A stretch of 64,000 bases of DNA from Gammaproteobacteria bacterium (GTDB lineage Bacteria > Pseudomonadota > Gammaproteobacteria > M30B25), in contig JAGYIW010000002.1 of assembly GCA_018402195.1 (NCBI GenBank), positions 14,082 to 78,081 of the forward strand, written 5' to 3'. The notes beneath the pieces are model-generated. The model was not told the DNA's origin, ran no database searches, and saw only the letters and a program-made list of their open reading frames with translations. The stretch's first letter is position 1. Each line of letters begins with the position of its first letter. This document shows, piece by piece, positions 3,166 through 52,429 of this stretch. A program made the translations under genes and the position numbers.

Positions 3166-3174
3166 GCTTTCGTT

Positions 3175-3750: not shown

Positions 3751-4307
3751 ATCGCTAGTGCAAACTATCTATCCTAATGTTTGCTGGTCGATGGATTTCA
3801 TGTCAGACGCAGTATATTGTGGGCGTAAATTTAGGATGTTTAACATCATTGATGATTATAACCGTGAAGCTATATTAGTTGAACCATAATTACCTCGCTC
3901 GTGTAGCAGGGTTATTATTGATATGCTAGATATGATTGTACATCTGAGCGGGGTTACCCAGAGATAATTCGAGTAGATAATGGCACATGTGTAATCTCAT
4001 CATCTATTTTAAAGAGTGGGCTAATCGCAGCATCACATCTTAGTTCGGTCGTAAAACCAACTCTGCAAACCACCACAAAATGGTTTTGTTCAATCGGACC
4101 TTAGAGAGGATGCGATATGAACTTGTTTGGTTCTTTGCGAGAAGTTAGGGGCTATCACTCGTGACTAAGAATAAGGGCAATCAAGAGCGTCCGCATCGTA
4201 ATCACTGGAAGGTTAACGCCAGTTTCTTTGCTGAACAGAGGGAAAAAAGGTTAACACATAAGTTGGGAAACTCTACTTTTAACTAGTTTTAAAAATGGGA
4301 GGGTTAC
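3748..4307 (+). mobile_element. degraded 3' fragment of the IS3-family element (matches 12782-13343)
   Basis: Colinear with the orfB 3' half and right terminal GGGAGGGTTAC of the intact copy; many indels and substitutions, no long ORF. Confidence 0.8.
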
Positions 4308-4308
4308 A

Positions 4309-4492
4309 GACCGACGTTCGCATCTAACGGAGAAACGGAGAACAAAAAGGGAGATTTTGGGGTAAAAATCGGTGATTTTGCGATTCTCTAGGGTACGCAT
4401 GTGTCGGGCGACTAAAAACGCGCTAAAGCCTATGAATTACTGAGGTTCGAGGGTAGTTAATTTGAAAAATGACGCCCAAAAAAAGTTCGAGC
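4309..4492. repeat. right arm of about 185-bp imperfect inverted repeat
   Basis: Reverse complement aligns with 3175-3361; starts 1 nt after the IS fragment end. Confidence 0.6.
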
Positions 4493-4639
4493 TGTAAACC
4501 TGTTGAGGTTGCTTCCCCGTCATAGTGTTTCTAAACTGGGTGGGAAATAGAAATTAATCCCATCTGGTTTAGGTATTTACACTGTTCAGGAGCAAAATCT
4601 TCCCTAAATTAAGCTGCTCTGACTAAGCTTTGAGCTCAG

Positions 4640-4678
4640 ATGTCCTTATAGTTACTCTATTTGTAACTTTAGGGACAT
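4640..4678. repeat. 39-bp imperfect palindrome, copy 1
   Basis: ATGTCCTTATAGTTACtctattTGTAACTTTAGGGACAT; ATGTCC/GGACAT and AGTTAC/GTAACT arms. Confidence 0.6.
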
Positions 4679-4731
4679 GTTTCTCTAAAAAACCCAAATT
4701 AGCTTGGATTTACAAGTATTTTCTGATTAAT

Positions 4732-4769
4732 ATGTCCTTATAGTTACACTATTTGTAACTTACGGACAT
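4732..4769. repeat. 38-bp imperfect palindrome, copy 2
   Basis: ATGTCCTTATAGTTACactattTGTAACTTACGGACAT, 92 bp downstream of copy 1. Confidence 0.6.
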
Positions 4770-5868
4770 AATAACTATGAACTTAAAATATACATAAAAA
4801 GACGTCAGAAAAGACGGAAAACAATACTTCACTATTGAAGATGTCATCAAAAATTTCAGTTGCATTTTATGCAAGAGTTGCATTACAGGTTGGGGCCTGT
4901 TACACCACATTGTTCCACAACGCTGTAAATTTAAAATATTTGACTGAACTCCAGAATGTCCACAGTTACACCATGGCTCTCCATTCCACCACAAGAGTTA
5001 GTCCCTTTGGTGATGAGATATTTAGATGCAAATTATTATGTTGCCTTTGTTGAGTGCTGGATTATTGCATGGGGCAACCCATCAAAACCAGCAAGATCAA
5101 GTTATATCAGATAAACGTAATGCTAACTTCATCTTGGTGATGTGGAAATTGATTATATTTATAAAAATCTATTTTAAATTTACCAACTCAAGATTTTACC
5201 GTGGCTACTGCCTGGCTATCTTAAAGTTGCAACTCCTGGAATTGGTTGCGCTTGATTTATTTAAATTTCAATCATGCTGGCGGTTTAAACCATATTGCAA
5301 CAGTATTTTCAGAGCTCATTGAAAACCTTAGATCCTATTAAACTAATAGATCTTGCAATTACCCCAGTCGTCAGTTGCAGCGTATTACATTCTAGACATT
5401 GATCTTATGGATGGAAGATAATGTTTGAAATAACATCAAGCCTTTACACAGCATGTGCAGAAAAACAAACCAAAGTATTCTGCATCTGAAATTTCTAAAG
5501 CAGGTTATCCAATGTGAGAAGGTAAGGAGAATATTAAACACAGGAGCTGAGAGTGATTTAAGAATGATTCTGAAGATTTTATTAAAGTTGCTAAACGTCC
5601 TGATGGCAAATGGATGAACAGAAATCAAGATTAATTATTAGCCGAGCATTATTGATTTATATAATGACCCGCATATTAGGGAAGCTCTTGTGTTTTAGAG
5701 GTGGCACTATGCTCAATAAACTGTTTTTAGAGCCTCCAAAAGAGAGTAGTGAGACATAGACTTGTCCAAAAAGACCTGATCCTATTGGGCAAACCATCTC
5801 TATTAGAAAGCTACTAAAACCATGGATGGGAGAGCCAAAATGGAAAATCACGCAGCGTGGTAAAGCTT

Positions 5869-6998
5869 GTAACCCTCCCTATTTTTAAAAAACTGTTGGT
5901 GGGTGGAGTCAAACATAGGTGCATTTTTTTCCCAATGTTCAGCAAAAGAAACTGGCGTTAACCCTTCCAGTGATTGATGCGGACGTCTGATTATACATAA
6001 TTAGCCAGTCACGAGTGAGCCCTGCTGCAAAGAACCAAACGTTCATATCAAGAACATCCTCTCTAAAGGTCCGATTACTGCCTATCAAACCATTTTGTGA
6101 TGGTTTGCCGGGTTGGATGAGTATTGAACCATGATGCCGATTAGCCTCACCTTTAAAAGTAGATGATAATGAATTCCTTGCCATTATCTATACTGAATTA
6201 TTCAACCCGATGCAATCAATCTAGCATATCAATAACCCTGTTGCAGGCAGTGAGTAGCTTTTGGTTCAGCCAATATAGCTTCATTGTTGCACCATCACTG
6301 ATTTTAAAAGATCTATCGCTCATTAACAGTGCGTCTGACATGAAATCCATCGACCAGCAAACACAGGGATAGATAGTTTGGTACCAGCGATCTGGCCTTC
6401 ACCTCTTGGGTATTCGCTTTGCGGGTTTATACGGAATATTTAGAACACTTGCATATGCCGTACACGCTTTGAGGATTCCATGTTTTTGTCAGCCTTCAGT
6501 TTATCCATCATTTTATCAACCATCGTTTTGTTCATCACAAAGATTGTAAGCACGTTTATCGCAGCATCACCTTCATGCATTTTCTTTCGGCTTATATATA
6601 TTAGTTTTACTATCGAAACCATCGCAGGCGTTAATGCTAACAGTGTATTGTCTTTCAAATCCTCGATCAACATCCGTCAGAGTATCTCTGGGAACTTTTT
6701 TTCAATTCACCTCCCTAATTTTGTGTTCAGACTAATATCAGCATACATGCCTTTAAGGTGGTTTTCAGCCTCATGCTTTCAGTGTTAGCTCTGATTAGTA
6801 TCCCAATGTACTTGATTCGCTGTAGTGGGTGTTGCCAGCACCTTATATTTACGATGAGATAATATCATTGACAGGCATGCCTGCCTCTGCCTCATTTAGC
6901 ATGTTAAACACTTGTGTATCTGTTAATTGGTCTCCTGTTTCATTAAAATTTAACAGAAAACTCTTCTTTTGGGCAGTCTTATTCTAGGGGAGGGTTAC
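5869..6998 (-). mobile_element. degraded near-full-length copy of the IS3-family element, inverted orientation
   Basis: Both terminal GTAACCCTCCC/GGGAGGGTTAC ends present; colinear with 12128-13343 on the minus strand; about 86 bp shorter, many substitutions and indels; only short ORF fragments. Confidence 0.8.
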
Positions 6999-7107
6999 CC
7001 GATTTATCTCTAAAAGCGCCAGAAAAGACAGTAAGTGAAACTAAGTCTCGGGTTGCAGCTAGTAAACCCAGACCCAAGATAGTCAAAAGCAAATGGATTA
7101 GTGGTGC

Positions 7108-11688: not shown

Positions 11689-12201
11689 GGTGCTTTTGGA
11701 GACTAGTCATCAAACAATTAAAATAAGTTACACGCGATAGTAGCATGAGGCACAGAAACTCTCAATGAAACCGTTCACATGCACTTTTTCCTTTTTCAGC
11801 TCTTAGAAAGTGATAACTTATTTCAAGGTGGGAACAGGCCGGCAGGTCTAGCCCCCTTTAACACAACCACCCCTCGCCAGATACGTCTTTTCTCTTATTG
11901 AAATCTTCAGTAGCCATCTATGCCCTTAGATGAGCGAGAGAAAATGCCCACCCCCGGGAAGAGGGTGGGCTGGAAAGTTGGATACCTGACAACGCCTTGC
12001 CAAGACTCATCTACTGCAAGACACAACAGGTTTTTTTCTCATTTCCTGCCTGACTGCTTTCACCTGATGCCTTCAACATGGTTTTATTTGATCCCTTCGA
12101 TGATTGATCACACCCCGTACTTGACTGGTAACCCTCCCCTAGAATAAGACTGCCCAAAAGGAGAGTTTTCTGTTAAATTTTAATGAAACAGGAGACTAAA
12201 G

Positions 12202-12489
12202 ATGAAGAAAAGTAAATTAACAGATACACAAATGTTTAACATGCTAAATGAGGCAGAGGCAGGCATGCCTGTCAATGATGTATGTCGTAAATATAAGATT
12301 GCTAATAGCACTTACTACAAACTGAAATCAAAGTACGCTGGGATGAGCTTGTCAGAGCTAACACGCTTGAAAGCGCTTGAGGCTGAAAACCACCGCCTTA
12401 AAGGCATGTATGCTGATATTAGTCTGGAACACAAAATCCTTAAGGAGGTGATTGAAAAAAAGTTCCCAGAGATACTCGACGAATGTTGA
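12202..12489 (+). CDS. IS3-family transposase OrfA (HTH)
   Basis: 95 aa, MKKSKLTDTQMFNMLNEAEAGMPVNDVCRKYKI..LKALEAENHRLK, typical IS3/IS407 OrfA with leucine zipper. Confidence 0.85.
   Translation: MKKSKLTDTQMFNMLNEAEAGMPVNDVCRKYKIANSTYYKLKSKYAGMSLSELTRLKALEAENHRLKGMYADISLEHKILKEVIEKKFPEILDEC
12455..12462 (+). other. programmed -1 ribosomal frameshift site AAAAAAAG (OrfA-OrfB fusion)
   Basis: A7G heptamer-type slippery motif located in the orfA/orfB overlap, as in many IS3-family elements. Confidence 0.6.
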
Positions 12490-13322
12490 TCGAGGATTTG
12501 AAAAGACAATACACTGTTAGCATTAACACCGCCTGCGCATTGGTTTCGATAAGCAAAACTGCTTATTACTATAAGCCGAAAATGCGTGAAGGTGATGCTG
12601 CGATAGAAGCATGCTTGCAATCACTGGCTGATGAACACAAACGATGGGGTTTTGATAAAATGATGGATAAACTGAAGGCTGACAAGAAACCATGGAATCA
12701 TAAGCGTGTACGGCGCATATACTGTAAATTAGGTCTAAATATTCGTATAAAGCCACGAAAGCGAATACCCAAAGGTGAGGCCAGATCGCTAGTGCAAACT
12801 ATCTATCCTAATGTTTGCTGGTCGATGGATTTCATGTCAGACGCACTGTATTGTGGGCGTAAATTTAGGATGTTTAACGTCATTGATGATTATAACCGTG
12901 AAGCTATATTAGCTGAACCAAGCTACTCACTGCCTGCCAGCAGGGTTATTGATATGCTAGATATGATTGCATCTGAGCGGGGTTACCCAGAGATAATTCG
13001 AGTAGATAATGGCACAGAATTCACATCATCTACTTTTAAAGAGTGGGCTAATCGGCATCACATCTTAGTTCAATATATCCAACCCGGCAAACCATCACAA
13101 AATGGTTTTGTCGAGCGGTTCAATCGGACCTTTAGAGAGGATGTTCTTGATATGAACTTGTTTGGTTCTTTGCGAGAAGTTAAGGCTATCACTCGTGACT
13201 GGCTAATTATGTATAATCAAGAGCGTCCGCATCAATCACTGGAAGGGTTAACGCCAGTTTCTTTTGCTGAACAGAGGGAAAAAAGGTTAACACATAAGTT
13301 GGGAAACTCTACTTTTAACTAG
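12483..13322 (+). CDS. IS3-family transposase OrfB (DDE integrase domain)
   Basis: 279 aa; ..WSMDFMSD..VIDDYNREA..IRVDNGTEFTS..QPGKPSQNGFVERFNRTFREDVL..YNQERPHQSL; -1 frame relative to orfA. Confidence 0.85.
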   Translation: MLIEDLKRQYTVSINTACALVSISKTAYYYKPKMREGDAAIEACLQSLADEHKRWGFDKMMDKLKADKKPWNHKRVRRIYCKLGLNIRIKPRKRIPKGEARSLVQTIYPNVCWSMDFMSDALYCGRKFRMFNVIDDYNREAILAEPSYSLPASRVIDMLDMIASERGYPEIIRVDNGTEFTSSTFKEWANRHHILVQYIQPGKPSQNGFVERFNRTFREDVLDMNLFGSLREVKAITRDWLIMYNQERPHQSLEGLTPVSFAEQREKRLTHKLGNSTFN

Positions 13323-13346
13323 TTTTAAAAATGGGAGGGTTACCCC

Positions 13347-16953: not shown

Positions 16954-17788
16954 ACAGCTAGACTGCACTTGCGAATATACTGTCTAGGCGACAACATTTG
17001 CAAGCCTTTATGTGGCGCGTGCTCATTATAATCCTCAAACCAGGCTGGTAATTGTTCCATAACCCGCTTTGCTGATGATAAGTCACCCTGCCATACATAA
17101 TCTCTTTTAAACGTTTTAACAAATGCCTCAGCCATCCCATTACTCTCTGGGCTGTAAGGCCGTGTCGTACAAATTTCTAACCCGATAGATCGACCAAAGG
17201 CAACGGTCTTTCTAGCAATATAACAAGGACCATTATCACTGAGCCATAATTGTATTTTATGGGAACCTTACCGACTCACCAAAACGATATAGCATCGTTC
17301 TGCCATCAAGTCGCTAATCATTGCGCCATCAATGCCTTTGTTTGAAGTAACATAACGGCGTGGTTTCACGATCGCAGGTATCTAGTGAAAAAGCCACTTG
17401 AACCCGCGAACCATCGTCACACGTAATATAGAAGCCATCAGAACACCATCGAGTATTGAATGCAACGTACCGATCTTGCCGTCGTGTACCTGCACGGTCT
17501 GGTTACATAGCGAGAAAGCAGTAAATTATTATCTCGCATTATCCTATAAACACGCTTGTGATTAATATTACTTTTGCCTGATTGATATTGTCCAGCATTT
17601 AATAGCGCCAGCAATCTGGATATAACCATAGGTTGACGAGAAGAGAGAATACATTTTATATCAGCTGAATATAGCGTTATCTGGCAACGCTGGTTTATCA
17701 GGGCGGAGATTATCCATGTGATTTCTTGTTAATCGCGCCGCTAAATTAGAGCGATGTTTGCAATGTTGCTGCAATCAATCGTTGACTG
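16919..17788 (-). mobile_element. degraded, 5'-truncated IS3-family element of a second type
   Basis: Minus-strand fragments ..AEAFVKTFKRDYVW..YNEHAPHKGLQMLSPRQY (integrase C-terminus) and ..HKRVYRIMRDNNLL..; TG-initiated terminal repeat at 16919-16953; interrupted at 17789 by the other IS. Confidence 0.6.
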
Positions 17789-19003
17789 GTAACCCTCCCC
17801 CCTAGAATAAGACTGCCCAAAAGGAGAGTTTTCTGTTAAATTTTAATGAAACAGAGACTAAAGATGAAGAAAAGTAAATTAACAGATACACAAATGTTTA
17901 ACATGCTAAATGAGGCAGAGGCAGGCATGCCTGTCAATGATGTATGTCAAATATAAGATTGCTAATAGCACTTTACCATAAACTGAAATCAAAGTACGCT
18001 GGGATGAGCTATCAGAGCTAACACGCTTGAAAGCGCTTTGAGGCTGAAACCACCGCCTTAAAGGCATGTATGCTGGATATTAGTCTGGAACACAAAATCC
18101 TTAAGGAGGTGATTGAAAAAGTTCCCAGAGATACTCGACGAATGCTGATCGAGGATTTGAAAAGACAGTACACCGTTAGCACACGCCTGCGCATTGGTTT
18201 CGATAAGCAAACCGCTTATTACTATAAGCCGAAATGCGCATGAAGGTGATGCTGCGATAGAAGCATGCTTGCAATCACTGGCTGATGAACACAAACGATG
18301 GGTTTTGATAAAATGATGGATAAACTGAAGGCTGACAAGAAACCATGGAATCAAGGCGTGTACGGCGCATGGGTAGTGTAAATTAGGTCTAAATATTCGT
18401 GTATAAAGCCACGAAAGCGAATACCCAAAGGTGAGGCCAGACTGCTATGCAAACTATCTATCCTAATGTTTGCTGGTCGATGGATTTCATGTCAGGACGT
18501 GCACTGTATTGTGGGCGTAAATTTAGGATGTTTAATCGTCATTGATGGATTATAACTGTGAAGCTATATTAGCTGAACCAAGTTAATTTTCACTGCCTGC
18601 CAGCAGGTTATTGATATGCTAGATATGATTGCATCTGAGTTGGGGTTACCTAGAGATAATTGAGTAGATAATGGTACAGAATTCACATCATCTACTTTTT
18701 TTTTTTAAAGAGTGGGCTAATCGGCATCACATCTTAGTTCAATATATCTCAACCCTGGCAAACCATCAAAATGGTTTTGTCGAGCGTTCAATCGGACCTT
18801 TAGAGGATGTTCTTGATATGAACATGTTTGGTTCTTTGCGAGAAGGCTATCACTCGTGACTGGCTAATTATGTAAGACCAAGATGTCCTGCATCAATCAC
18901 CGGAAGGGTTAACGCCAGTTTTCTTTTGCTGAACAGAGGGAAAAGGTTAACACATAAGTTGGGAAACTCTACTTTTAACTAGTTTTAAAAATGGGAGGGT
19001 TAC
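17789..19003 (+). mobile_element. full-length but frame-scrambled copy of the IS3-family (IS407-group-like) element
   Basis: Colinear end to end with 12128-13343; both terminal repeats present; more than a dozen indel events in the first about 450 bp, yet total length is 1215 vs 1216 bp. Confidence 0.85.
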
Positions 19004-19265
19004 AACATTTCCATCACGCTTCAAGAGACCAAAAACAGGTGTTTTACCAGCAGCACCTCGCCCTCGTTTACCACGAACTCTCTTGGCACCAAAGTATGAT
19101 TCATCAAATTCAATTTCACCAGAGAATAAACCGCCTGAACTAAAGGGGAGGAAACTATTGTTTGCCGAAAAAGATTGAAATAACGGTTGATTATATTCCT
19201 ATTGATGCCTAAAAGACTTGCTGTCTTGGCGGCCGTTATATCCTCACAAAAGTATAGCATTATCT
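19004..19265 (-). mobile_element. IS1595-family (ISXO2-like) transposase fragment, truncated at both ends
   Basis: Minus strand: ..FCEDITAAKTASLLGINRNIINRYFNLFRQ.. then, in another frame, FSGEIEFDESYFGAKRVRGKRGRGAAGKTPVFGLLKRDGNV, ending exactly at the IS junction. Confidence 0.55.
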
Positions 19266-19308
19266 TTTGCTATACAAGCCGTGGCGAACAATCACCTATA
19301 CCAAATTG

Positions 19309-31852: not shown

Positions 31853-32224
31853 ATGATGGAACAATCGTCAAAGATAGTGGATAACCTCTGCTTAAGTCAA
31901 CCCAGTATGCCAGACTGGGATAAATTTCAAGTAAAATTACAGAAAATAAAGGCTGATCGTCACCCCACGCAGATAACGCGGCGGCACTTTAAGATCGATG
32001 CCAGGTATGGTGATGTTTACTTCACATTGCGTGAAGCACAATGTATGGCTCAAATCATGCGTGGTAGAACAGTGAAATCAACCGCACTCTTTTTGGGACT
32101 TTCACCTAGAACAGTTGAGTATTATTTGAAAAACATGAAGGCGAAAATGAAATGTAGGACCAAGTCAGAATTAATGCAGCTTATTGCAGATACTGAGTTC
32201 ATGACCACAATTGGTCGTTTTTAA
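31853..32224 (+). CDS. LuxR/GerE-family HTH regulator (small, no receiver domain)
   Basis: 123 aa; C-terminal ..TLREAQCMAQIMRGRTVKSTALFLGLSPRTVEYYLKNMKAKM.. GerE HTH. Confidence 0.65.
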   Translation: MMEQSSKIVDNLCLSQPSMPDWDKFQVKLQKIKADRHPTQITRRHFKIDARYGDVYFTLREAQCMAQIMRGRTVKSTALFLGLSPRTVEYYLKNMKAKMKCRTKSELMQLIADTEFMTTIGRF

Positions 32225-32307
32225 TCCTATTATGATGTGTTTTGACCGCAGAGGGGGCGACATGATACTCTTGTCGCCCTCGATAAGTGCTTGCAGGCAG
32301 GTGTTTT

Positions 32308-33078
32308 ATGCAGCTTGTGGATAAAGACTTGTGGCATGAAAGCCAGCCTCATATCTGAAGAGGTAGTGCTAACCTCTGGTGCACTCAGGTTTCAGAGGCT
32401 GCAGTGAGCTGCATTTGGCCTCCCGCCCGACGTGCTCACTGATGATGAAAACAAAATAGCTCGTATTCAAGCGCCTGTGGTGCAGCCAGGTGCATGGGCG
32501 CAAGAGCCTGCATTTTGCCAGGGTTGCTGCCAAGGTCACACCATCAAATCAATCCCTAAAATATTTCTTTGTTATTAGGTGATAATGGCAAACCATATTT
32601 GCCTGAAACACAAAACAAAGCTACAGTTTAATGTCACCCATACAGATGGACTGGATGCTTGTCGCATTTGGTCTAGGCAGCTTCTGAAGCCGCGTTGACT
32701 CATGGAGCATCAAATCTTGAAGGCGGCGGTACGCTTTGATGGCATTGCCGCCAGTGCCACGGCAAGTTTTCACCAGAAGAATATCAGTGGACGTGCGCAG
32801 AAAAATGAACCAGGAAGGCGCCAGCGCCAAGAGGCGCGTTTCCGGCGCCCGGGGTGGCAAAGGAAGCCTTGCCTAAAAGCCGGGGGTATGGGGGCCACAA
32901 CCTGCGCCTAGATGCTTCTCCGGAACCTCTTCGAAGGGAGGATAAAGGGGGCGCTAAGCACAGCTCCTTTATCGCTGCGCGTGCAGGAAACCCTCAGAGA
33001 AATCCGTTGCTTCCTCTGAAGCGTTGCCAAGTATATTTATCCCGATACCAAGCCGCTTTGTCGCTGAATAATCTGTAA
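32308..33078 (+). pseudogene. Sfp/EntD-type 4'-phosphopantetheinyl transferase, multiply frameshifted
   Basis: Pieces in three frames: ..LTDDENKIARIQ.., ..GDNGKPYLPE..FNVTHTDG.., ..W.RK.CLKAGGMG.. (W-KEA-KA-G motif). Confidence 0.5.
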
Positions 33079-33278
33079 GTGCAAACGGTTCTTTGTTGTC
33101 GATATGCTGACAGATAACGCTAAAGTGCGATAGCAAGGCTTGCACAATCAGGTTAATGGCTTCGATGATTTCAAAAGCGGTTGTTTGTAGCGCCAAGTCC
33201 CTTTATACTGTAACGGTACGCTTCGGGGAAACTGTCGTACGGCCGACATTGCTACAGTACGAGAATAGCGCCATTTTC

Positions 33279-33373
33279 GGGAGGGGCCCCGGAGCGGTCA
33301 AAGGGATCAGACTGCAAACCGGCGACTTAGCTTCTTTAGTGCCTCAGCAGGTTCGAATCCTACCCCTCCACCA
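33279..33373 (+). pseudogene. tRNA-Tyr-like sequence, anticodon arm disrupted (loop reads CTGCAAA)
   Basis: GGAGGGG/CCCCTCC acceptor, GAGCGGTCAAAGGG D-region, GGTTCGAATCC T-loop and CCA present. The anticodon stem TCAGA/CCGGC cannot pair and the span is about 10 nt too long. Confidence 0.5.
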
Positions 33374-33391
33374 CTGGTGGGTAGAAAATAA

Positions 33392-33462
33392 GCGGGTGTA
33401 GTTCAGCGGTAGAACTTCAGCCTTCCAAGCTGATTGCGTGGGTTCGATTCCCATCACCCGCT
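33392..33462 (+). tRNA. tRNA-Gly (anticodon TCC), apparently intact, no encoded CCA
   Basis: GCGGGTG/CACCCGC acceptor, GTTC/GAAC D-stem, TCAGC-CTTCCAA-GCTGA anticodon arm, GTGGG-TTCGATT-CCCAT T-arm. Confidence 0.8.
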
Positions 33463-33463
33463 G

Positions 33464-33565
33464 GCTGAGGTTTGGGCAAGCCCATAAGGAAGCTCCTCAG
33501 GCTTGGTAGAGCACTTCTTGGTAAGGAAGAGGTCACCGTGTCTAATTCCGGGTTATGGGGCACCA
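33464..33565 (+). pseudogene. tRNA-Thr(GGT)-like sequence with an insertion of about 19 nt and broken stems
   Basis: ..TTGGTAGAGCAC..CTTGGTAAGGAAG..GGCACCA recognisable, but the acceptor and T stems do not pair. Confidence 0.45.
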
Positions 33566-33619
33566 AGATGGAGTAGGACAACTCGTAAACATAACATTTG
33601 GGTAGAGGGCATGAAGGCA

Positions 33620-34891
33620 CTGGCAAAGAAACTGAGCTGAAGCAAACCGGCATATCACCTGTGTAGGTACAATTGGTCACTGCAGACTATGGTGCTGAAT
33701 GACGCTGGGGAATTGAAGGGTGTAGCCAGACATAGCTGATTATAAAATGCGTCTGAAAGTTGAGCATGGTGGCAGCTCAAAACTATGCGGATATAGATAA
33801 AGCGCCAGAAGAGAAAGCGCGAGGGCATCGATCACTCTCAACCACAGACGCTGAGTATGCAGTGAAAGTGCGACATCCCCACGCAGACTGTCCCATTACG
33901 GATTATGTAAAGAACATGATCAGCGGTAGCAGACATGGGATTGAGCGATACTGGTTGTATCAGCGGCGGATGGTCCAATGCCACGTGACAAAGCAGAGCT
34001 ATATTGTTGGCAAGGCAGGTAGTGCCATCGATGGTGGTATTTCCTTTTGAACAAAGCAGACATGGTAGATGGCATTATGATACAGATTTGGCAGAAATGG
34101 AAGTACAGAGAGCGGTTGAGCGAGTACGACTTTCCGGCGTGACGAAGTACCAGAATCATCAAGGGATCAGCTTGAAAGGACTGGCGGCGGTAAAGCAGTG
34201 CATTACAAAGTGGCGCAAGTTGATCAAAGATTTGGTGTTGGCGATGGATGAGTACTTTGAGATACCAGAGCGTCCGTGTAGACAAGGACTTTTTGATGCC
34301 GATTGAAGACGTATTTTCTATTTCAGGTCAAAAAAGTGGCCAGCAGTACGCGACAGGGCGAATCGAGCGTGAGGTAGTGCAAAGTCAGGGGATCTGATAG
34401 AGATTGCAGGGTAAAATTCAGAGGCACCGCAAACAACAATTACGTACGGGTGCGTATATTGCTCTCGCAAGTTGTTGGACGAAGGTTTTGCGGAGACAAC
34501 GTGTATTGTTGGCGGGGCGCTTAGCTATGTAGCAGCTCAGAGCGAGGCCAAGCACGGAAGGGCAAAGCCAGGCAACGACTCCGGCCTGGCCAACACCAGC
34601 TCCAGCGGGAAGTGTACGTATTGACCAAAGATTTAGTTGCGGGCGTCATGCTTAAGCCCCCGATGATACGCCACAGCCCCCACTGGAGAATTTGAGTTGC
34701 ACTCCTTAACGTGGAGATCAAGCCACTGTGGACTACGGTAGAGATGAAGTAGGTTTTTTCCAGGAGACAATGCACAGCAGTAGCGAGAGCCGACCTGTTC
34801 CAATTGCGATGGAGCGCGGTAAGTTTCCTCATTCGCGAAGGTAATGCAAACAGTAGGTGCCGGGAATGTAACTGAGGTAATTACTGAGTAA
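33620..34891 (+). pseudogene. tuf: elongation factor Tu, heavily degraded copy
   Basis: Colinear nucleotide similarity to 50203-51394 from (c)TGGCAAAGAAA to ATTACTGAGTAA; dense indels and substitutions; about 80 bp longer; no ORF longer than about 120 aa. Confidence 0.85.
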
Positions 34892-34930
34892 GATGCTGTG
34901 GGTGAGCTTGTTTTTGCAGCCTCCGGGCAT

Positions 34931-35015
34931 AGGCTAGTAGCTCAATCTGGGTGGTGATGCAGCGGATCTCAAAACCGCAGGTTGGGGGTCTGAGTCCCCT
35001 CCTCCTAGCCTGCCA
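34931..35015 (+). pseudogene. tRNA-Trp-like sequence, internally disrupted (anticodon loop reads CTCAAAA)
   Basis: AGGCTAG/CTAGCCT acceptor and CCA tail pair perfectly, but the D and T regions are expanded (85 nt) and the CCA anticodon is not intact. Confidence 0.5.
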
Positions 35016-35032
35016 CAACTCACAGCCAGGAA

Positions 35033-35404
35033 ATGAGTACCAAGCAGATCACAGGTAAAAATGCTGCTGACACCCGGTGGCCCTTTGTGACTGCTTTGTT
35101 GACGTTAGCATTGGTAGCCAATATGTGGTTTACTGATGTTGATGGTATTACGTGCTGCGGTTGGTATTGTTGTTGTACTATTGGCGCGCTTGGTGGCACA
35201 AGCAAAACAATGTCAAGGCAAAGACACTGCAAATGCTCTCAACAAAGACACATGGAGATGCGTAAAGTGGTTTGGCCGACAAGACAAGAAGCTTCCAGAT
35301 GAAATACCATGTTGGTGGCACCACTGTTGTATTAATGTCAGGTGTGTTATGGGGCATTGACACATGACAGTTTGCATGGGCCAATTATGAAATTTGTAGG
35401 GTAA
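35033..35404 (+). pseudogene. secE: preprotein translocase subunit SecE, frameshifted
   Basis: ORF 35033.. contains ..EMRKVVWPTRQEA.. (SecE signature); the downstream TM segment is in another frame. Confidence 0.6.
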
Positions 35405-35407
35405 AAA

Positions 35408-36007
35408 GTGCAAACACGGTCGTGGTAAGGTCACCGAACTCTGCCTATAATATCCATTTTGTATCCTTTCAAAGGAAAACGTGTGGTAAAAGACTCCGGT
35501 ATAGTCCTACCTGCATTGCATAATCCTGGGTGACTAAATTTTGGTGAAATCTTGGTTCCTTCGGAGACTGTGATGGAGATCAAAAAGGTGGCACTAAGAA
35601 AAGCATTGAGCGTAAAATTTTTCCTGGCTATGTGTTGTTGCAGATGCACTGACTGACGAAACTCAGTATGGTTAGGGAAGCACACCTTAATGTTATGGGA
35701 TTTATTATGGCAATTTCAATGACGTCCAACTCCCTATTTCAAATAAAGAGGTTTGTATTTCAAACGAGGCTATATTGATACGTGTTGAAGAGGGTGTCAG
35801 CAAGCCTAGGGCCCCAAACATTATTCGAGGTTGGTGAGGTTGTGCGTGTTGTAGGGTGGCCCATTTGCCGACTTGGACGGAGCGTTTCATGAAGATATCA
35901 CTCGATGACAAGAGTCGGCTACGGGTGGCTGTAAAAATGATCATCCCTGGACGATCTACTCCGCAGGTTGAACTAGAATTTGGCGAAGTAGGAAAAATAG
36001 CTAGTAA
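35408..36007 (+). pseudogene. nusG: transcription termination/antitermination factor NusG, multiply frameshifted
   Basis: Fragments ..VPSETVMEIKK....KFF(P)GY.., ..GEVVRVV.GP.. and ..GRSTPQVELEFGEV.K. scattered over three frames in the canonical secE-nusG-rplK position. Confidence 0.65.
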
Positions 36008-36056
36008 AACAACAGTGGGAGCCGGAAGGCGTTTGAACCCATAGAGGAAAAGTCAA

Positions 36057-36505
36057 GTGGCAACTAAAAAATCGTCAACTACGTGAAGCTGCAGATTTCT
36101 GCAGGTTCTGCCAATCCTGCACCGCCGGTTGGCCCAGCACTGGGGCAGCACGGCTTGAACATTGTGGGGTTTTGTAAAGAATTTAACGAAAAAACCAAAG
36201 ATTTGGAGAAAGGCCTGCCAGTACCAACGGTCATTACCGTATATTCTGATAAAAGCTTTACTTTTATACTGAAAACACCACCAGCATCTGTGTTGCTACT
36301 AAAGGCTGCTGGAATCAAAAAAGGCAGTGGTGTTCCTCATAAAGAGAAAGTAGGTCAAGTGACGCGTGCTCAGTTGGAAGAAATAGCCGCCACTAAGATG
36401 CCTGATTTGTCAGCCAATGATATGGATGCAGCTGTCTTAATTATTGCAGGTACAGCGAGAAGTATGGGGATTGAAACTAATTTAGGTGATGGGGGTGCTG
36501 CATGA
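36057..36505 (+). CDS. rplK: 50S ribosomal protein L11 (uL11); frameshift in codon 5 at an A6 run, or start at GTG 36083
   Basis: ORF 36083-36505 = ..[23 protein letters not shown]... With one extra A at 36066-36071, GTG 36057 (GAGGA upstream) gives [17 protein letters not shown]. Confidence 0.85.
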
Positions 36506-37907: not shown

Positions 37908-38296
37908 ATGAGTGAACTATCTAAAGAAGTACAATCAATGCTTGATGGCATAAAAAAGTTAACTGTGGTACAAGTGGTTGAGCTTGTGAAGGCAATGGAA
38001 GATGAATTTAGCGTTTCTGCCGCAGCCATGGCTGCGCCAGCTGCTGCTCCTGTCGGCGGTGCTGGTGGCGAAGCTGCTGAAGAAAAACTGAATTCGACGT
38101 TGTAATGACTAGTTTTGGCCCTAACAAAGTTGCAGTTATTAAGGTAGTTAGGGTGATAACGTCTCTTGGCTTGAAAGAAGCCAAGGACTTGGTTGAGTCT
38201 GCACCCTCATCTGTTAAAGAAGGTGTCTCTAAAGACGAAGCAGAAGACATTAAGAAACAGCTCGTAGAAGCTGGTGCTGAAGTGGAAGTGAAGTAA
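37908..38296 (+). pseudogene. rplL: 50S ribosomal protein L7/L12 (bL12), single frameshift at an A5 run (38083-38087)
   Basis: ORFs 37908-38105 and 38105-38296. One extra A gives ..[42 protein letters not shown].. Confidence 0.85.
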
Positions 38297-45600: not shown

Positions 45601-46795
45601 ATGGCGCTGTTATTGCTATCAAAGATGGTGGCAAAGTGAAAGCGGGTGATATTGTCGCGGAATGGGATCCTCACACACATCCAATCATCACTGAGGTTGG
45701 CGGTGTCTTGCGTTTGCTTAATATCGAAGAGGGCATTAATGCTACCAAGCAAACTGATGATTTAACTGGTCTTTCAAATATTGTCATTACGACTGGCAAA
45801 CACCGTGACATGGATGAGGCACGACCTATGGTTAAGCTAACCGATGCCAAGGGGGAAGATTTAATGATCAGTGGTACCAAGGTACCTGCGCATTATTATT
45901 TGCCTGTGGGTGCAATCATTCAGTTAAAAGATGGTGACAAAGTAGGTACTGGTGAGGTTATTGCTCGTATACCACAAGAGACTTCAAAGTCTCGTGATAT
46001 TGCTGGTGGTTTGCCGCGGGTTGCTGATTTGTTTGAAGCCAGACGTCCTAAGGATGCGGCTATCTTGGCAGAATTATCTGGGGTAATTAGCTTTGGCTGA
46101 AACCAAAGAGAAGAAACGCCTTGTGATTACAGCACTGATGGTGAAACCTATGAGGTAGTAATTCGAAATGGCGTCGTTGGTGTGTTTGAAGGTGAGCAAA
46201 TCGAACGTGGTGAAATTGTGGCTGAAGGGTCCTAGCGATCCACATGATATTGTCCGTTTGTGGGGTCAATGCTTGGCCGAGTATATTGTCAATGAGATCC
46301 AAGAGGTTTACCGCTTGCAAGGTGTAAAAATCAATGACAAGCATATTGGAAGTCATATAAGACAGATGCTGCGAAAAGTGGTTATCAATCCTGTGACACC
46401 GCGCTAATCATTGGCGAGCAGGTGGGAGCAAGGACGTTTAATGAGACTAATGCAGCATTGAAGAAGGCAAAGTACCAGCACGCTGTGAACCACTTTGTTG
46501 GGGATTACAAAGCCTCATTGGCGACAGAGTCATTCTTGTCTGCAGCGTCGTTCCAAGAAACCACGCGTATTGACAGAAGCCTCTGTTGCCGGGGAAAAAG
46601 ACAATCTTCGTGGTCAAAAGAGAACATGATTGTCAGTCGCCATCCCTGCGGAACTGGTTTGGCGAAGCGTCGTTTAGATGCTAAGCGTAGGGCGGAGGTT
46701 TGGCTCGGGAAGCCATAGGTGTAACACCAGAATCTGCTGAGCAAGCACTTTCAAGCCCTGCAGGATAGCAGTGCTGATGCAAAAATAATTTTTAG
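42609..46795 (+). pseudogene. rpoC: DNA-directed RNA polymerase subunit beta': intact for 1163 codons, the last about 230 codons frame-scrambled
   Basis: TTG start with AGGGG SD; NADFDGD at about 43980. The ORF stops at 46100 (..ISFG*), yet the C-terminus (..ETKEKKRLVI.., ..[12 protein letters not shown].., ..[13 protein letters not shown].., ..ASLATESF.SAASFQETTR..) continues in shifting frames. Confidence 0.9.
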
Positions 46796-46926
46796 ATAGT
46801 TTGGCTTGCCCCTTGCACCGCGTTGCGGCAACGGGGCTCTCCCAAAGGTATAAATCCCCAGGTTAAACCATTTTGCTTGGTTTGTCCTAGGCAATATTGA
46901 ATTAAAGGCGATTCTTGACGAGAAAA

Positions 46927-46965
46927 GCCCACACAGAAACCCTGCACTTTGTGTGTGGGCTCTTA
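46927..46965 (+). terminator. candidate terminator after rpoC
   Basis: GCCCACACA-15 nt-TGTGTGGGC hairpin then TCTTAATATT; lies inside the low-fidelity block, so the T-tract may be corrupted. Confidence 0.35.
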
Positions 46966-47059
46966 ATATTGGTCTCAGTGCCTAATCCTGAGACTAGAGA
47001 AATTGAACAGACAGGTTATGTCGATTGGTGAAAAGACGCTTAAAATAGCGATTTTGCGC

Positions 47060-47089
47060 TTGACAAGAGATGGTGTGTGCTTTTAGAAT
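47060..47089 (+). promoter_or_regulatory. candidate sigma70 promoter of the str operon
   Basis: TTGACA-18 nt-TAGAAT about 60 nt upstream of the rpsL ATG. Confidence 0.3.
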
Positions 47090-47149
47090 CGCGCGTTCAA
47101 TTTAAATTTCCAAATGTTTTCACCGCGTCGGTTGAGCAACAATTTAGTT

Positions 47150-47527
47150 ATGGCTAGAATAAATCAATTATGCAGGAAGCCACGGAAACGAAGTTAAGAA
47201 GACATCGTCACCAGCGTTGAGTCGCTGTCCCACAACGTCGTGGTGTATGTGTGCGAGTCTACACAACAACCCCTCGTAAGCCCTAACTCTGCGTTACGTA
47301 AAGAAGCTAGGGTCTTGTGACAAACAGGTATGGAAGTCCCTGTTTACATTGGTGGTGAAGGCCACAACTTGCAAGAACATTCCATTGTGCTTGTGCGTGG
47401 TGGCAAAAAGATTTTGCCAGGCGTGCGTTACCATGTGGTCCGTGGCGCTCTAGATACTTCAGGGTTGGCAAGACGTCAGACGACGTTCCAAATATATGAA
47501 AGAAGCCAAAGAAAAATAAGAAGCTAA
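47150..47527 (+). pseudogene. rpsL: 30S ribosomal protein S12 (uS12), frameshifted
   Basis: ATGGCTAGAATAAATCAATTA..; ORF 47330-47527 carries ..[38 protein letters not shown].. while the N-terminal half is in other frames; span 378 bp. Confidence 0.8.
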
Positions 47528-47534
47528 GGTTTGC

Positions 47535-48080
47535 CATGAGAAGAAGGCGCGCTGGCACTATATTGCCCTGACCCTTTGCTTAAAAGTGAACTGGTTGCCA
47601 AGTTCTATCAATTGCATCATGATGGATGGAAAAATCTGTAGCAGAGAGCATTGTGTATGATGCAGATGAATTGTAAAGCGTCAAGGTCCCTAAGGGTATT
47701 GGAAAAATTGATGGTGAAGAAGACGCAGGTAAGAAGGCGGCAAAGGTGGTTCTATAGTCGCACCAACGACCGGGCGCGTCGTCGCTTTGGGGCTTTCGAA
47801 GACCATTGAGGCAGTCAAACCCTCAGTTGAAGTAAAGTCCGCCGCGTGGGTGGTTTCTAACTACCAAGTGCCGGTGGAAGTTCGTCCCAAGCGCCGTTTG
47901 GCTTTGCCATGCGTTAGCTCAAGACTGTTGCCGTGGCAAGATCCCCTGAGAAGTCCATGTCCAAACGTTTAGCTAACGAGTGCTAGATGTGCTTGGCAGG
48001 GCGAGGGAATACTAAAGAAGCGTAATGATACGCATCAAATGGCTAAGGCAAATCAGGCATTTGCCCATTACATGTGGGGC
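47535..48080 (+). pseudogene. rpsG: 30S ribosomal protein S7 (uS7), frameshifted
   Basis: MRRRRAG.., ..SVAESIVYDA.., ..VEVKS..GGSNYQVPVEVRPKRR.ALA.., ..[10 protein letters not shown] in different frames. Confidence 0.75.
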
Positions 48081-48090
48081 GAAGGCACAA

Positions 48091-50188
48091 GTGAGACAAC
48101 ATATCGAGTTGTACCGTAATATTGGTATTATGGCGCACATCGACGCCGGTAAAACAACAACGACAGAGCGCATTCTTTTATACGGAAATCCTACAAAATT
48201 GGTGAAGTGCATGATGGTGCTGCCACCATGGACTGGATGGAACAAGAGCAAGAGCGTGGTATTACGATACAATCAGCTGCAACAACTTGCTTCTGGTCTG
48301 GTATGGATAACCAATACAAGGCGCATCGCATTAACATTATTGATACGCCTGGCCACGTTGGACATTTCCATTGAAGTTGAGCGATCGCTCAAAGTCTTGG
48401 ATGAAGTGCATGTGCTGTATTTTGTGCTGTGGGTGGTGTCGAGCCTCAGTCTGAGACTGTATGGCGTCAGGCTACTAAATACAATGTGTACCTCGCATGG
48501 GCTGTCCAGATGGACCGTGCTGGTGCCATTTGCGTGTGGTCGAGCAAGCGTTTGCGATTGGGTTTTCTAATCCAGTGGCCATGCAGCTGCCAATTGGCGC
48601 TAAAGATTCTTTCGAGGGCGTGGTTGACTTGGTATTGATGAAGGCTATTCACTGGGATGAAGCCTCACAAGGCACTAAATTCGAGTTGAAAGATATCCTC
48701 AGAAAATATGGTCGACAGAATACAGCCGCTACCGCGAGAAATCTTGAAGCTGCGGCGGAATCTTCTGATGAATTAATGGGAAGCTTATTGAAAATGGTGA
48801 CCTTTCTGAAGATCAAATACATGTAAGCTATCATTGCCCGTACATTGGCTAACAGAAGTGGTTTCCTGTATTTTGTGGTTCTGCCTTTAAGAACAAAGGT
48901 GTGCAAGCCATGTTGGATGCAGTTATTGAGTACATGCCTTCACCTGCTGACATTGGATCCTGTGGTTGGTATTGCTGGATGACAAAGATGGATCAGAAAT
49001 CCAGTGCCCACCCTAAAGATGATGAGCCTTTTGCTGCTTTGGCATTCAAGATTTCAACTGACCCATTTTGTGGTACTTTGACTTACTTTCGTGTACTCTG
49101 GGCTATTACAATCCTGGCGATACAGTTTTATAACCCTTTGAAAGGCAAGCGTGAACGCATTGGTCGTTTTGCGCAAATGCACTCTAATTCTCGTGAAGAA
49201 ATCAAAGCAGTATGCGCTTCTTGGTGACATTGCAGCTGTTGTTGGTCTGAAGACAGCTGGGACAGGTGACACCTTTGTGTGACATAAACCGTATATTAAC
49301 GCTGATCCTGGAGTTCCCAGAGCCAGTAATTTCGGTTGCCGTTGAGCCTAAGACCCAAAGCTGACCAAGAGAAAATGGGTACAGCTTTGGAAATTGGCTC
49401 AGGAAGACCCCTTCTTTCAGGTACATACTGACGAAGAATCAGGTCAGACAATTATTTCTGGCATGGGTGAACTCCACCTTGGTAATCGTTGATCGAATGT
49501 TGCGTGAATTTAAAGTGCAAGCCAACGTTGGTAAGCCACAGGTCGCTTACCGTGAAACTATCCGAGGGTACTTGCGAGCAAGAGCACAAATTTGTGCGTC
49601 GACAGGTGGGCGCGGTCAATTTGGCCATGTCTATATTCGCATTGAGCCACAGAAGCCGGAGGGCTTTGAATTTGTCAACGAAATTGTTGGTGGTGTGATT
49701 CCAAGAGAATACATTCCGGCTGTTGAGAAGGGTGTGGTTGAACAAATGAAAAATGGTGTGGTTGCCGGATACCCTGTTGTAGATGTTAAAGTTACCTTGT
49801 ACGATGGTTCATTTCATGCTGTAGATTCTAGTGAGATGGCATTCAAGATTGCTGGCTCATTGGCCTTCAAAGAAGGCGCACCTAAAAAGCCAATGCCGTC
49901 CTACTTGAGCCTGTCATGGCTGTTGAAGTTGTGGACACCTGAAGAATACATGGGTGACATTGTTGGTGACCTGAACCGTCGTCGTGGTGTCATTTTAGGT
50001 ATGGATGAAATCTGTTGGTAAAATCATCAAGGCTGAAGTACCCTTTTTTTTTGGCTGAGATGTTTGGTTACTCTACAGATCTGCGTTCATCTTCGCAGGG
50101 ACGTGCATGTTATACAATGGAATTCTTAAAATACAACGAGCTACCTAAGAATATTGCTGATGGTATTGCTGAAACTAGAAAATCTTAA
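48091..50188 (+). pseudogene. fusA: elongation factor G, many frameshifts
   Basis: ..[22 protein letters not shown].., ..[23 protein letters not shown].., ..[11 protein letters not shown].. and ..[14 protein letters not shown].. readable across all three frames; about 10 ORF fragments; span 2098 bp, about the size of an intact fusA. Confidence 0.9.
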
Positions 50189-50202
50189 CTAAGGAGTTGA
50201 GC

Positions 50203-51394
50203 ATGGCAAAGAAATTTGAGCGAAATAAACCGCATATCAATGTAGGTACAATTGGTCACGTAGACCATGGTAAGACGACGCTAACAGCAGCGATAGCGAC
50301 AGTAATGTCGAAAGAGTATGGTGGTGAAGCTCAAAACTATGCGGATATAGATAAAGCGCCAGAAGAGAAAGCGCGAGGCATCACGATTTCAACGGCACAC
50401 GTTGAGGTATGAAAGTGGTGCGCGACACTACGCGCCACGTAGACTGTCCTGGTCACGCCCAGGATTATGTAAAGAACATGATCACGGGTGCAGCGCGAGA
50501 TGGATGGAGCGATACTGGTTGTATCAGCGGCGGATGGTCCAATGCCACAGACAAGAGAGCATATATTGTTGGCAAGGCAGGTAGGGTGCCATCGATGGTG
50601 GTATTTTGAACAAAGCAGACATGGTAGATGATGCAGAGCTATTAGAGCTGGTAGAAATGGAAGTAAAGAGAGCTGTTGAGCGAGTACTACTTTCCAGGTG
50701 ACGAAGTACCAATCATCAAGGGATCCAGCTTTGAAAGGATTGGCAGGTGAAAAGCAGTGACATAGGTGAGCAAGCGATCAAAGATTTGGTGTTGGCGATG
50801 GATGAGTACTTTGAGATACCAGAGCGTCCAGTAGACAAGGACTTTTTGATGCCGATTGAAGACGTATTTTCTATCGGTCGTGGTACAGTAGTGACAGGGC
50901 GAATCGAGCGGGGTAAAAGGTAGCTAGGGGATTGGATAGAAGATTGTAGGTATCAGAGGTACTCAAAAACAACATGTACGGGTGTAGAGATGTTTCGCAA
51001 GTTGCTGGACGAAGGTTTTGCGGGAGACAACGTAGGTGTATTGTTAAGGGGTACGAAGCGAGAAGAAGTAGAGCGAGGCCAAGTATTGGCAAAGCCAGGC
51101 ACGATCAAGCCACACACGAAGTTCAAAGCGGAAGTGTACGTATTGACCAAAGATGAAGGTGGGCGTCATAAGCCATTCTTCGGAGGATACAAGCCACAGT
51201 TCTACTTCAGGACGACAGACGTAACGGGAGAGATCAAGTTACCGACGGATGTAGAGATGGTGATGCCAGGAGACAATGTGACAGTAGAAGTAGAGTTAAT
51301 TGTTCCAATTGCGATGGAGCAAGGGGTAAGTTTCTCTATTCGCGAAGGTGGCCGCACAGTAGGTGCTGGTGTCGTAACTGAAATTACTGAGTAA
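50203..51394 (+). pseudogene. tuf: elongation factor Tu: 5' two-thirds frameshifted, last 134 codons intact
   Basis: [30 protein letters not shown].. stops at 50412. [17 protein letters not shown].. and later segments shift frame until about 50970; 50990-51394 is clean (..[20 protein letters not shown]..). Span 1192 bp. Confidence 0.9.
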
Positions 51395-51399
51395 GATTC

Positions 51400-51738
51400 A
51401 TGGCAACAAAGTTAATGAGAAATGAGCGTATTCGCATAGTCTTGAAAGGCTTTGACCATCGTCAGTTGGACGAGTCTACACGTGCCATTATTGAAACTGC
51501 TAAGCGTACAGGTGCAAGAATTCGTGGGCCTATCCCATTGCCTAACCGCACCCAGAAGTTTGTGGTTTTGATTTCACCGCATGTGAATAAAGACGCGCGT
51601 GAAGCTTATCAAATGATAACCCATAAACGGTTGATTGACTTGATTCAACCAACTGAGAAAACAGTGGATGCACTGATGAAGCTGGATTTATCTGCCGGCA
51701 TTGATGTGCAAATTAGTGTGGACAAGATTGAAGAATAA
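51400..51738 (+). CDS. rpsJ: 30S ribosomal protein S10 (uS10)
   Basis: Intact 112-aa ORF, ..[27 protein letters not shown].. Confidence 0.9.
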
Positions 51739-51772
51739 ATGCCTTTTTGGTGTGTGACTGAGAGAGAAGATC

Positions 51773-52429
51773 ATGACAAAAGCCTTAATTATTGGCACAA
51801 AAGTGGGAATGACGCGAGTCTTCGGTCAAGATGGTGAATCCATCCCTGTAACCGTACTGCAAGTTCAGCCTAACCAAGTGCTTAAGCGTGAGGAGTTATC
51901 AGAGCATATAGCCCTGATTACGACTAGCTATGGCGAAGAAAAACCACTGGCGCGAATGACAAAAGCTGTGGCAGGTAAGTACCGCCACGCCAATGCTAAA
52001 GGTGCACAAGGGATGCGATCCTTTAAAGTGCCCTCAACTTCTGAGTTAAAAGTTGAAGATGCCCTAGACGTTACTGCTTTTGCTGAAGGTGACTATGTTG
52101 ATGTGGCGGGTATTTCAAAAGGTAAAGGCTTCCAGGGTGTGATTAAGCGACACGGTTTTGGTATGCAGCCAGCAACCCACGGCACGTCATTGGCCCACAG
52201 AGCCCATGGTTCTACTGGGCAGTGTCAGGATCCAGGTAAGGTTTTCAAAGGTAAGAAAATGGCTGGCCAAATGGGTAACAAACGTGTTACAACACAAAAC
52301 TTACGTGTTGTACGCACGGATGCTGAAAAGCAACTGTTGTTGATCAGGGGTGCCATTCCAGGCGCTCCTGGGACTTTTGTAGAAGTCTCTGCAGCAATAA
52401 AAAAGAAAAAAGAAGGTGGTGAACCGTGA
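51773..52429 (+). CDS. rplC: 50S ribosomal protein L3 (uL3)
   Basis: Intact 218-aa ORF, ..GTKVGMTRVF..; S10-operon order. Confidence 0.9.
   Translation: MTKALIIGTKVGMTRVFGQDGESIPVTVLQVQPNQVLKREELSEHIALITTSYGEEKPLARMTKAVAGKYRHANAKGAQGMRSFKVPSTSELKVEDALDVTAFAEGDYVDVAGISKGKGFQGVIKRHGFGMQPATHGTSLAHRAHGSTGQCQDPGKVFKGKKMAGQMGNKRVTTQNLRVVRTDAEKQLLLIRGAIPGAPGTFVEVSAAIKKKKEGGEP

Follow-up and report, generated by a model that had tools for sequence, protein, structure and literature searches.

How can the essential tRNA-tuf-secE-nusG genes of a living bacterium be written in such a way that almost none of them can be read? This question is raised by a 64,000-nucleotide stretch of gammaproteobacterial DNA (contig JAGYIW010000002.1 of assembly GCA_018402195.1, positions 14,082 to 78,081 of the forward strand; hereafter the window), in which a region at ~32,300-36,071, referred to here as Block A, leads up to the ribosomal protein gene rplK. 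An earlier note, made from the letters alone, had offered two answers: a low-fidelity consensus, such as an unpolished long-read patch, or a decaying paralogous copy. Based on our results, it is very probable that Block A is the real canonical locus, given as low-fidelity consensus in a draft contig, and thus an artefact and not biology; in the organism itself the genes are almost certainly intact. The first answer is borne out by a noise-like spectrum of differences, by an intact tuf on an independently assembled contig (L086) and by at least two more damaged blocks in the window (Blocks B and C). The second is not supported, in view of the canonical position of the block, which runs into intact rplK-rplA, of a spectrum that is the opposite of decay and of a search of protein clusters, in which neither an intact EF-Tu nor an intact NusG of the organism was found.

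The damage itself is plain from the open reading frame (ORF) map and the stop-to-stop frame map. No protein gene reads through Block A, as had been noticed before, and the longest ORF within 32,225-36,082 has 121 amino acids and lies on the minus, wrong, strand. On the left, the stop codon of a LuxR-type gene is at 32,224 and the edge of the block falls between an intact terminator-like hairpin (~32,250-32,285) and the first premature stop (~32,356). When the three frames were scanned against Pfam with stops masked, only shadows below the cutoff appeared in the block (GTP_EFTU, E = 7e-5; SecE, E = 0.004; NusG, E = 0.14). The right end is as abrupt as the earlier note had it, and its coordinate is correct, the final defect lying in a run of A's at 36,066-36,071 with clean rplK onward. 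We also observed that G+C is 0.49-0.50 across Block A (measured over 32,001-35,000) and 0.43-0.47 in the flanks, a rise that random inserted bases pulling composition to 50% would give.

The elements of the locus were placed by alignment and by tblastn with the sequences of relatives, as follows.

32,309-33,070, plus strand: remnant of a putative 4'-phosphopantetheinyl transferase (PPTase) gene, garbled; a weak assignment from motif-like fragments in three frames
33,280-33,373, plus strand: tRNA-Tyr, garbled; from alignment to the tRNA-Tyr(GTA) of six relatives
33,391-33,463, plus strand: tRNA-Gly(TCC), intact; from ARAGORN and Rfam
33,480-33,565, plus strand: tRNA-Thr(GGT), garbled and ~10 nt too long; from alignment to relatives
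33,619-34,894, plus strand: tuf (EF-Tu), the tufB-type operon copy, at ~77% fidelity; from alignment to L086
34,931-35,015, plus strand: tRNA-Trp, garbled and ~10 nt too long; from alignment to the tRNA-Trp(CCA) of the relative L081
35,033-35,401, plus strand: secE, garbled; from tblastn and frameshift-aware alignment
35,419-35,999, plus strand: nusG, garbled; from tblastn and frameshift-aware alignment
36,057-36,505, plus strand: rplK, clean save for a one-base loss in an A-run; from the sequence and frameshift-aware alignment

The same order, tRNA-Tyr(GTA), tRNA-Gly(TCC), tRNA-Thr(GGT), tuf, tRNA-Trp(CCA), secE, nusG, rplK, rplA, all on one strand, was found in the loci of six relatives, and also in the closest relatives, the metagenome contigs L081 and L083. 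Block A is thus the ordinary essential tRNA-Tyr/tRNA-Gly/tRNA-Thr/tuf/tRNA-Trp/secE/nusG/rplK locus in its canonical place. The gene order is thus what a canonical locus should have, whereas the genes are not: among them, only the tRNA-Gly is intact. The block had been described as scrambled, which holds for its base sequence; the genes themselves stand in canonical order and have not been rearranged.

ARAGORN identified two tRNAs in the whole window and one inside Block A, the tRNA-Gly(TCC) at 33,391-33,463, which is the only element of the locus that is functional as written. It scores 73.1 bits against the Rfam tRNA model (E = 4e-15, above the gathering threshold) and aligns without indels to the tRNA-Gly of three of the six relatives. 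The sequences resembling tRNA-Tyr, tRNA-Thr and tRNA-Trp went undetected by ARAGORN and by Rfam RF00005 (E up to 1), falling below the gathering threshold, and are recognisable only by alignment, which confirms the earlier description of them as broken. Each exceeds its proper length by ~10 nt, having gained 9-16 bases and lost 1-6. The tRNA-Tyr has 67-73 matches to those of six relatives, 9-16 extra and 1-6 missing bases, and an anticodon GCA in place of GTA; the tRNA-Thr has up to 67 matches, with 11-13 extra and 1-2 missing bases in full-length alignments; the tRNA-Trp agrees with the tRNA-Trp(CCA) of L081 at 71 positions and differs at 3, with 11 bases inserted and 2 lost, and a C is gone from its anticodon loop. 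Short-read correction may have left the clean tRNA-Gly as an island. It was also observed that the garbled tRNA-Tyr and tRNA-Thr are only 18-20 nt away from it, one on each side.

The protein genes have suffered in the same way, and EF-Tu, secE and nusG are indeed broken. With proteins of relatives, tblastn recovers rplK, rplA, rpoB and rpoC in one frame each at 81-91% identity, rplJ at 70% and rplL over two frames, while tuf, secE and nusG in Block A come out as pieces in three frames at 38-67% identity. A relative's SecE finds secE with E = 3e-13, and frameshift-aware alignment requires at least 4 frameshifts for 58 of 129 identities (Pfam SecE, E = 0.0036, below cutoff); nusG, matched by tblastn in all three frames, requires 6 or more frameshifts along with 12 additional codons for 107 of 181 identities (Pfam NusG, E = 0.14). 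By the same kind of alignment to the proteins of L081, rplA and rplJ need 0 frameshifts. The start of rplK reads GTG GCA ACT AAAAAA TCG, where seven A's would hold the frame; this one-base loss in the run at 36,066-36,071 cuts off the first 8-9 codons and costs a single frameshift (123 of 147 identities). Beyond it, rplA, rplJ and rpoB are clean, as the earlier note had them; the nearby rplL carries a one-base loss in an A-run.

To count errors, a true version of tuf is needed, and an independent assembly supplied it. The window holds two tuf copies, that of Block A and a second one following fusA in the str operon (tuf2, 50,203-51,394). L086, an independently assembled contig of 1,774 bp from the short-read run SRR14300309, carries the rpsJ protein of the window, is identical to the window at 991 of 991 nt (100.00%, 50,990-51,980) and encodes an intact EF-Tu of 395 amino acids. 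Over its first ~790 nt, up to 50,990, tuf2 shows 3 substitutions relative to L086, with 12 bases gained and 8 lost (14 indel events, 23 differing columns), and frameshift-aware alignment places 10 frameshifts in this 5' part. A decaying gene would not pass from 0 differences in 991 nt to 14 indel events and 3 substitutions in the 790 nt next to them, so the breaks in tuf2 belong to the contig, and the organism's own gene is whole. The second tuf, with which the earlier note had compared the block, is therefore only partly a clean reference; we used L086 as the true tuf. An intact tuf with an identical flank in an independent assembly is thus available for tuf2, and by extension the tuf of Block A would likewise be intact. 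For secE-nusG, no independent true reference was found, the contigs L083, L088 and L089 being other relatives with 75-77% DNA identity in the clean rplK.

Against L086, the tuf of Block A aligns over 1,332 columns with 1,025 matches (77%) and 110 substitutions; in addition, 76 insertion events add 141 bases and 33 deletion events remove 56. This amounts to 0.26 errors per true base, with 197 indel bases to the 110 substitutions and an insertion:deletion ratio of 2.5:1, so that the net-insertion bias remarked upon earlier is real. Frameshift-aware alignment counts at least 25 frameshifts, 3 in-frame stops and 26 extra codons. The copy is colinear with tuf2 (33,619-34,894 vs 50,203-51,394) and ~80 bp longer, as had been stated, with 76% identity; the direct comparison proposed in the earlier note is likewise dominated by indels (119 mismatches, 140 extra and 59 missing bases). 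The differences fall on the three codon positions as 95/105/102, compared with 30/22/178 for the real divergence between L086 and L081, and transitions to transversions are 52:58, compared with 134:96. Inserted bases are nearly equal in composition (T 39, A 36, C 35, G 32), and single-base insertions lie beside an identical base in 17 of 44 cases, no more than chance, so that there is no homopolymer context. Coding-blind, indel-dominated and insertion-biased, these differences are noise and not pseudogene decay.

This noise is not evenly spread. Perfect runs of 54, 52, 49 and 42 nt connect the Block A tuf to L086, that is, four runs of at least 30 nt where 0.11 would be expected under uniform error, and they match the organism's own tuf at sites where the relatives differ. 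Gene conversion between the tuf copies was considered as a sufficient source of these runs and rejected, since the unique flanks (tRNAs, secE, nusG) are damaged alike. For the secE-nusG part we compared DNA identity with four relatives: it is 75-77% in clean rplK, indel-free against two of them and with at most 6 indel bases against the others, and drops to 60-64% in secE-nusG, with ~200 indel bases per 1.1 kb, from which an added error of ~15% follows. At ~75% identity the aligner makes gaps even in clean genes; for the fine error counts we dropped the DNA alignment to relatives and kept L086 tuf and frameshift-aware protein alignment as error meters. On these measures, Block A is written at about 75-85% base accuracy.

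Damage of this kind is positional and not gene-specific: it recurs in at least two further blocks of the window, separated from Block A and from each other by clean intervals, and in noisy copies of an insertion sequence (IS) at 3.7, 6 and 17.8 kb. These two blocks are the following.

46,100-50,990, plus strand: Block B, with the 3' end of rpoC, rpsL, rpsG, fusA and the first ~790 nt of tuf2; from tblastn and comparison with L086
57,500-62,700, plus strand: Block C, with the 3' end of rplE, rpsN, rpsH, rplF, rplR, rpsE, rplO, secY, rpsM and the 5' end of rpsK; from tblastn

In Block B, the proteins of relatives and of E. coli give tblastn matches in multiple frames at 33-68% identity, compared with 80-90% in clean genes. 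Block C covers the spc operon, where E. coli proteins give fragmentary, frame-hopping matches and ORF lengths collapse. The edges of the blocks lie inside genes (rplK, rpoC, tuf2, rplE). The contig is therefore a mosaic of three tiers, namely error-free sequence, sequence with sparse indels and sequence with heavy noise, whose borders ignore genes; by our estimate, the affected share of the 64-kb window is somewhere between a quarter and a third. Residual errors in otherwise "clean" DNA are one-base losses from A-runs, A7 to A6 in rplK and A6 to A5 in rplL. In the latter (38,078-38,090; the loss lies in GAAGAAAAACTG), the frame is split into ORFs of 65 and 63 amino acids with clean surroundings.

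The insertion sequence is IS3-like (rve integrase core, E = 1.4e-5), with a clean copy at 12,127-13,343. The copy at 17,763-19,028 is 91% identical to it (37 mismatches, 34 extra and 47 missing bases), and further noisy or partial copies are at ~3,750-4,340 and, on the minus strand, at 5,835-7,011 (80%). These noisy copies sit in other low-ORF blocks (~3,000-7,000 and 17,000-19,300) with the same patchy indel noise.

If the locus were dead in the organism, working copies should exist elsewhere, and we looked for them in a collection of 5.8 billion protein clusters. The same collection contains the contig's other proteins: those that the window encodes intact (rplA, rpoB, rplJ and one of 706 aa) are filed there under one NCBI contig of 105,452 bp. 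Under that contig are also filed the products truncated at the block edges (rplK of 140 aa from the GTG at 36,083, the 3' part of tuf2 of 134 aa and rpoC of 1,163 aa), as well as fragments of fusA (181 aa) and secY (186 aa) and the two halves of rplL. Among these clusters no intact EF-Tu of the organism was found, none being more than 89% identical, and no intact NusG, none fitting the block better than the NusG of relatives. The genome as deposited thus seems to be without any working tuf or nusG, and no living cell could do without them. In JGI metagenomes, 0 matches were obtained with an exact 30-mer taken where clean rplK begins.

The most likely origin of such a record would be a hybrid metagenome assembly in which noisy Nanopore-derived sequence was spliced between clean short-read contigs, and in which short-read polishing would have fixed only the islands where reads anchor. 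Such polishing would account for the clean islands, namely the tRNA-Gly and the conserved parts of tuf. The run that gave L086, SRR14300309, belongs to a Nanopore and Illumina metagenome study of Lake Shunet, a meromictic lake; the study lists six runs under BioProject PRJNA721826, the others being SRR14300307, SRR14300308, SRR14307495, SRR14307795 and SRR14307796 (PMC8382752). In the workflow of that study, Nanopore reads were assembled with metaFlye and corrected with Pilon, Illumina reads were assembled with MEGAHIT, and both assemblies were joined with quickmerge; the bins then went through five more Pilon rounds and an optional Unicycler re-assembly with long-read contigs as bridges (PMC8382752). 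Our reading of that paper is that the metagenome-assembled genomes retained could lack short-read support over as much as a fifth of their length (PMC8382752). Either the splicing of long-read and short-read sequence or polishing limited to anchored reads would give a mosaic of the kind described above, and the organism probably comes from Lake Shunet, judging by its identity to L086. The earlier note had pictured the patch as spanning the tuf repeat. This would fit part of its extent and leaves out the rest: ~2.5 kb of Block A is unique sequence, and no repeat was seen in Block C.

Several points weigh against this account. The tie to the Lake Shunet study is indirect and unconfirmed, resting on identity to one contig (L086) of one run, and the basis of the analysis is assembled contigs and protein clusters, not reads. 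The ~26% error in tuf exceeds that of a usual raw Nanopore read of the R9 era. Nanopore consensus tends to deletions, whereas the block has its 2.5:1 bias to insertions, so that one must suppose either mis-polishing or a single read of very poor quality. Lastly, the noise is patchy: uniform raw-read error was rejected in view of the four long perfect runs in tuf and of the flawless tRNA-Gly. This patchiness would reflect local short-read correction, and a very poor single read, repeated mis-polishing or admixture from a related population may each contribute to the noise.

Related lineages are present in public metagenomes. The nearest relatives are the metagenome contigs L081 (rplA 81% identical) and L083 (79%). 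A scan of species-representative genomes with rplA gave nothing closer than 66%, the named matches at 65-67% being Marinospirillum and Salinicola. The record of L081 (ENA contig ctg69948_2x_c) is a doubled and collapsed assembly, with fusA linked straight to secE through tuf; its rpoC and its fusA are both broken into three ORFs, indicating that long-read frameshift errors affect that record too.

The explanation that Block A is a decaying duplicate, a second and dead tRNA-tuf-secE-nusG copy with functional copies elsewhere in the genome, has some attraction. The tuf gene is often duplicated in proteobacteria and two copies are present here, the lack of codon-position bias is what the absence of selection would give, and the analysis covers 64 kb of the genome, which leaves room for copies elsewhere. 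Nevertheless, the block stands in the canonical position and continues unbroken into intact rplK-rplA-rplJ-rplL-rpoB-rpoC, so that the "dead copy" would be the operon's own 5' part. Bacterial pseudogenes are said, after Mira, Ochman and Moran in 2001, to decay mainly by substitutions and with a deletion bias; the tuf of Block A has more indel bases than substitutions, a transition:transversion ratio of 0.9 and the reverse bias. Nor does decay explain clean runs of 42-54 nt that equal the other tuf copy where relatives differ, or a perfect tRNA-Gly beside stretches of 55-70% identity. Furthermore, rpsL, fusA, secY and others are damaged alike, with edges inside genes; the protein collection yielded neither EF-Tu nor NusG in intact form; and tuf2, equally broken in the contig, is intact in L086, where the adjoining DNA is 100% identical. 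We regard a decaying duplicate as very unlikely and close to refuted.

Reads of related populations could instead have entered a chimeric consensus, part of the noise then being real divergence. Related lineages do occur in public metagenomes (rplA 76-81% identical). A relative, too, departs from the true tuf in 84 of the mismatch columns, and the block shares a relative's base in 38 of these, somewhat above the one third expected by chance. However, real divergence between lineages is indel-free in coding DNA and concentrated as 30/22/178 over the codon positions, unlike the even and indel-dominated differences of the block, and the long perfect runs match the organism's own tuf, not those of relatives. 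This reading is highly improbable; at best it adds a minor component to the artefact, and the block would still not be biological.

It is barely credible that Block A is accurate and shows, for example, a dead and hypermutated duplicate of the 5' part of the operon in a subpopulation or degenerating line, with intact tRNA-Trp, secE, nusG and tuf on another replicon. Least likely of all, with next to no chance of being right, is corruption introduced after deposition, such as a synthetic perturbation absent from the public record: the noise does look random (equal inserted-base composition, no homopolymer context), but exactly the products truncated at the block edges are already filed under one NCBI contig.

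The low-fidelity consensus of a real locus is thus the reading we retain, and one element at the left of Block A is left to discuss. The earlier note had a PPTase-like gene spread over three frames, and motif-like fragments in three frames are indeed there (GKPYL, FNVTHT and KEAL within 32,309-33,070); the assignment built on them is weak. A fragment stitched by hand matches Pfam AASDHPPT_N weakly (E = 0.023; the score is 15.3 bits, where the cutoff is 27). No PPTase domain was matched in the unbiased three-frame Pfam scan or in the minus-strand Pfam scan, a PDB sequence search with the stitched peptide found no PPTase, and tblastn of 3,080 ORFs from the loci of relatives against 32,230-33,290 gave no match. 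The PPTase assignment is unproven and the gene should be called putative.

The biological significance of the block is none, as its genes are standard. Its importance lies in the record: a public contig with kilobase blocks at 75-97% accuracy yields false pseudogenes. The blocks strip markers from the annotation (EF-Tu, EF-G, SecY, SecE, NusG, many ribosomal proteins and three tRNAs) and depress marker-based estimates of completeness. The blocks could also pass for signs of a decaying genome; the lineage is uncultured, and in ribosomal protein L1 its nearest neighbours reach only ~80% identity. Users of this genome should mask or re-assemble the damaged blocks.

Comparison with known systems points the same way. 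In E. coli, the cluster runs thrU-tyrU-glyT-thrT-tufB, then secE-nusG, rplKA and rplJL-rpoBC. Block A and the genes after it resemble the proteobacterial tufB-secE-nusG-rplKAJL-rpoBC cluster in order and orientation and in having the Tyr, Gly(TCC) and Thr(GGT) tRNAs upstream of tuf. They differ from the E. coli cluster in the tRNA-Trp(CCA) between tuf and secE, which is also found in the non-enteric relatives examined, and from the proteobacterial cluster in that every gene but tRNA-Gly in the block is non-functional as written. The damage itself has a known counterpart in the indels of long-read and hybrid assemblies, which fragment genes (PMC12007338, on the Kastor tool); the study of PMC8382752 states the problem for its own workflow. 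As in those assemblies, frameshifts and premature stops turn essential genes into apparent pseudogenes here, and one-base homopolymer losses occur in clean sequence. The likeness ends with the amount and layout, since the usual errors are scattered homopolymer indels and the contig has ~26% error in tuf, kilobase blocks, sharp edges and an insertion bias. Finally, many broken frames beside intact genes also recall the pseudogene-rich genomes of Sodalis and Mycobacterium leprae. In these bacteria, tuf, fusA, secE, secY, nusG, the ribosomal proteins and tRNA-Trp stay intact, and substitutions and deletions dominate decay. In the contig, by contrast, core translation and secretion genes are hit, and the spectrum is dominated by indels and, among them, by insertions.

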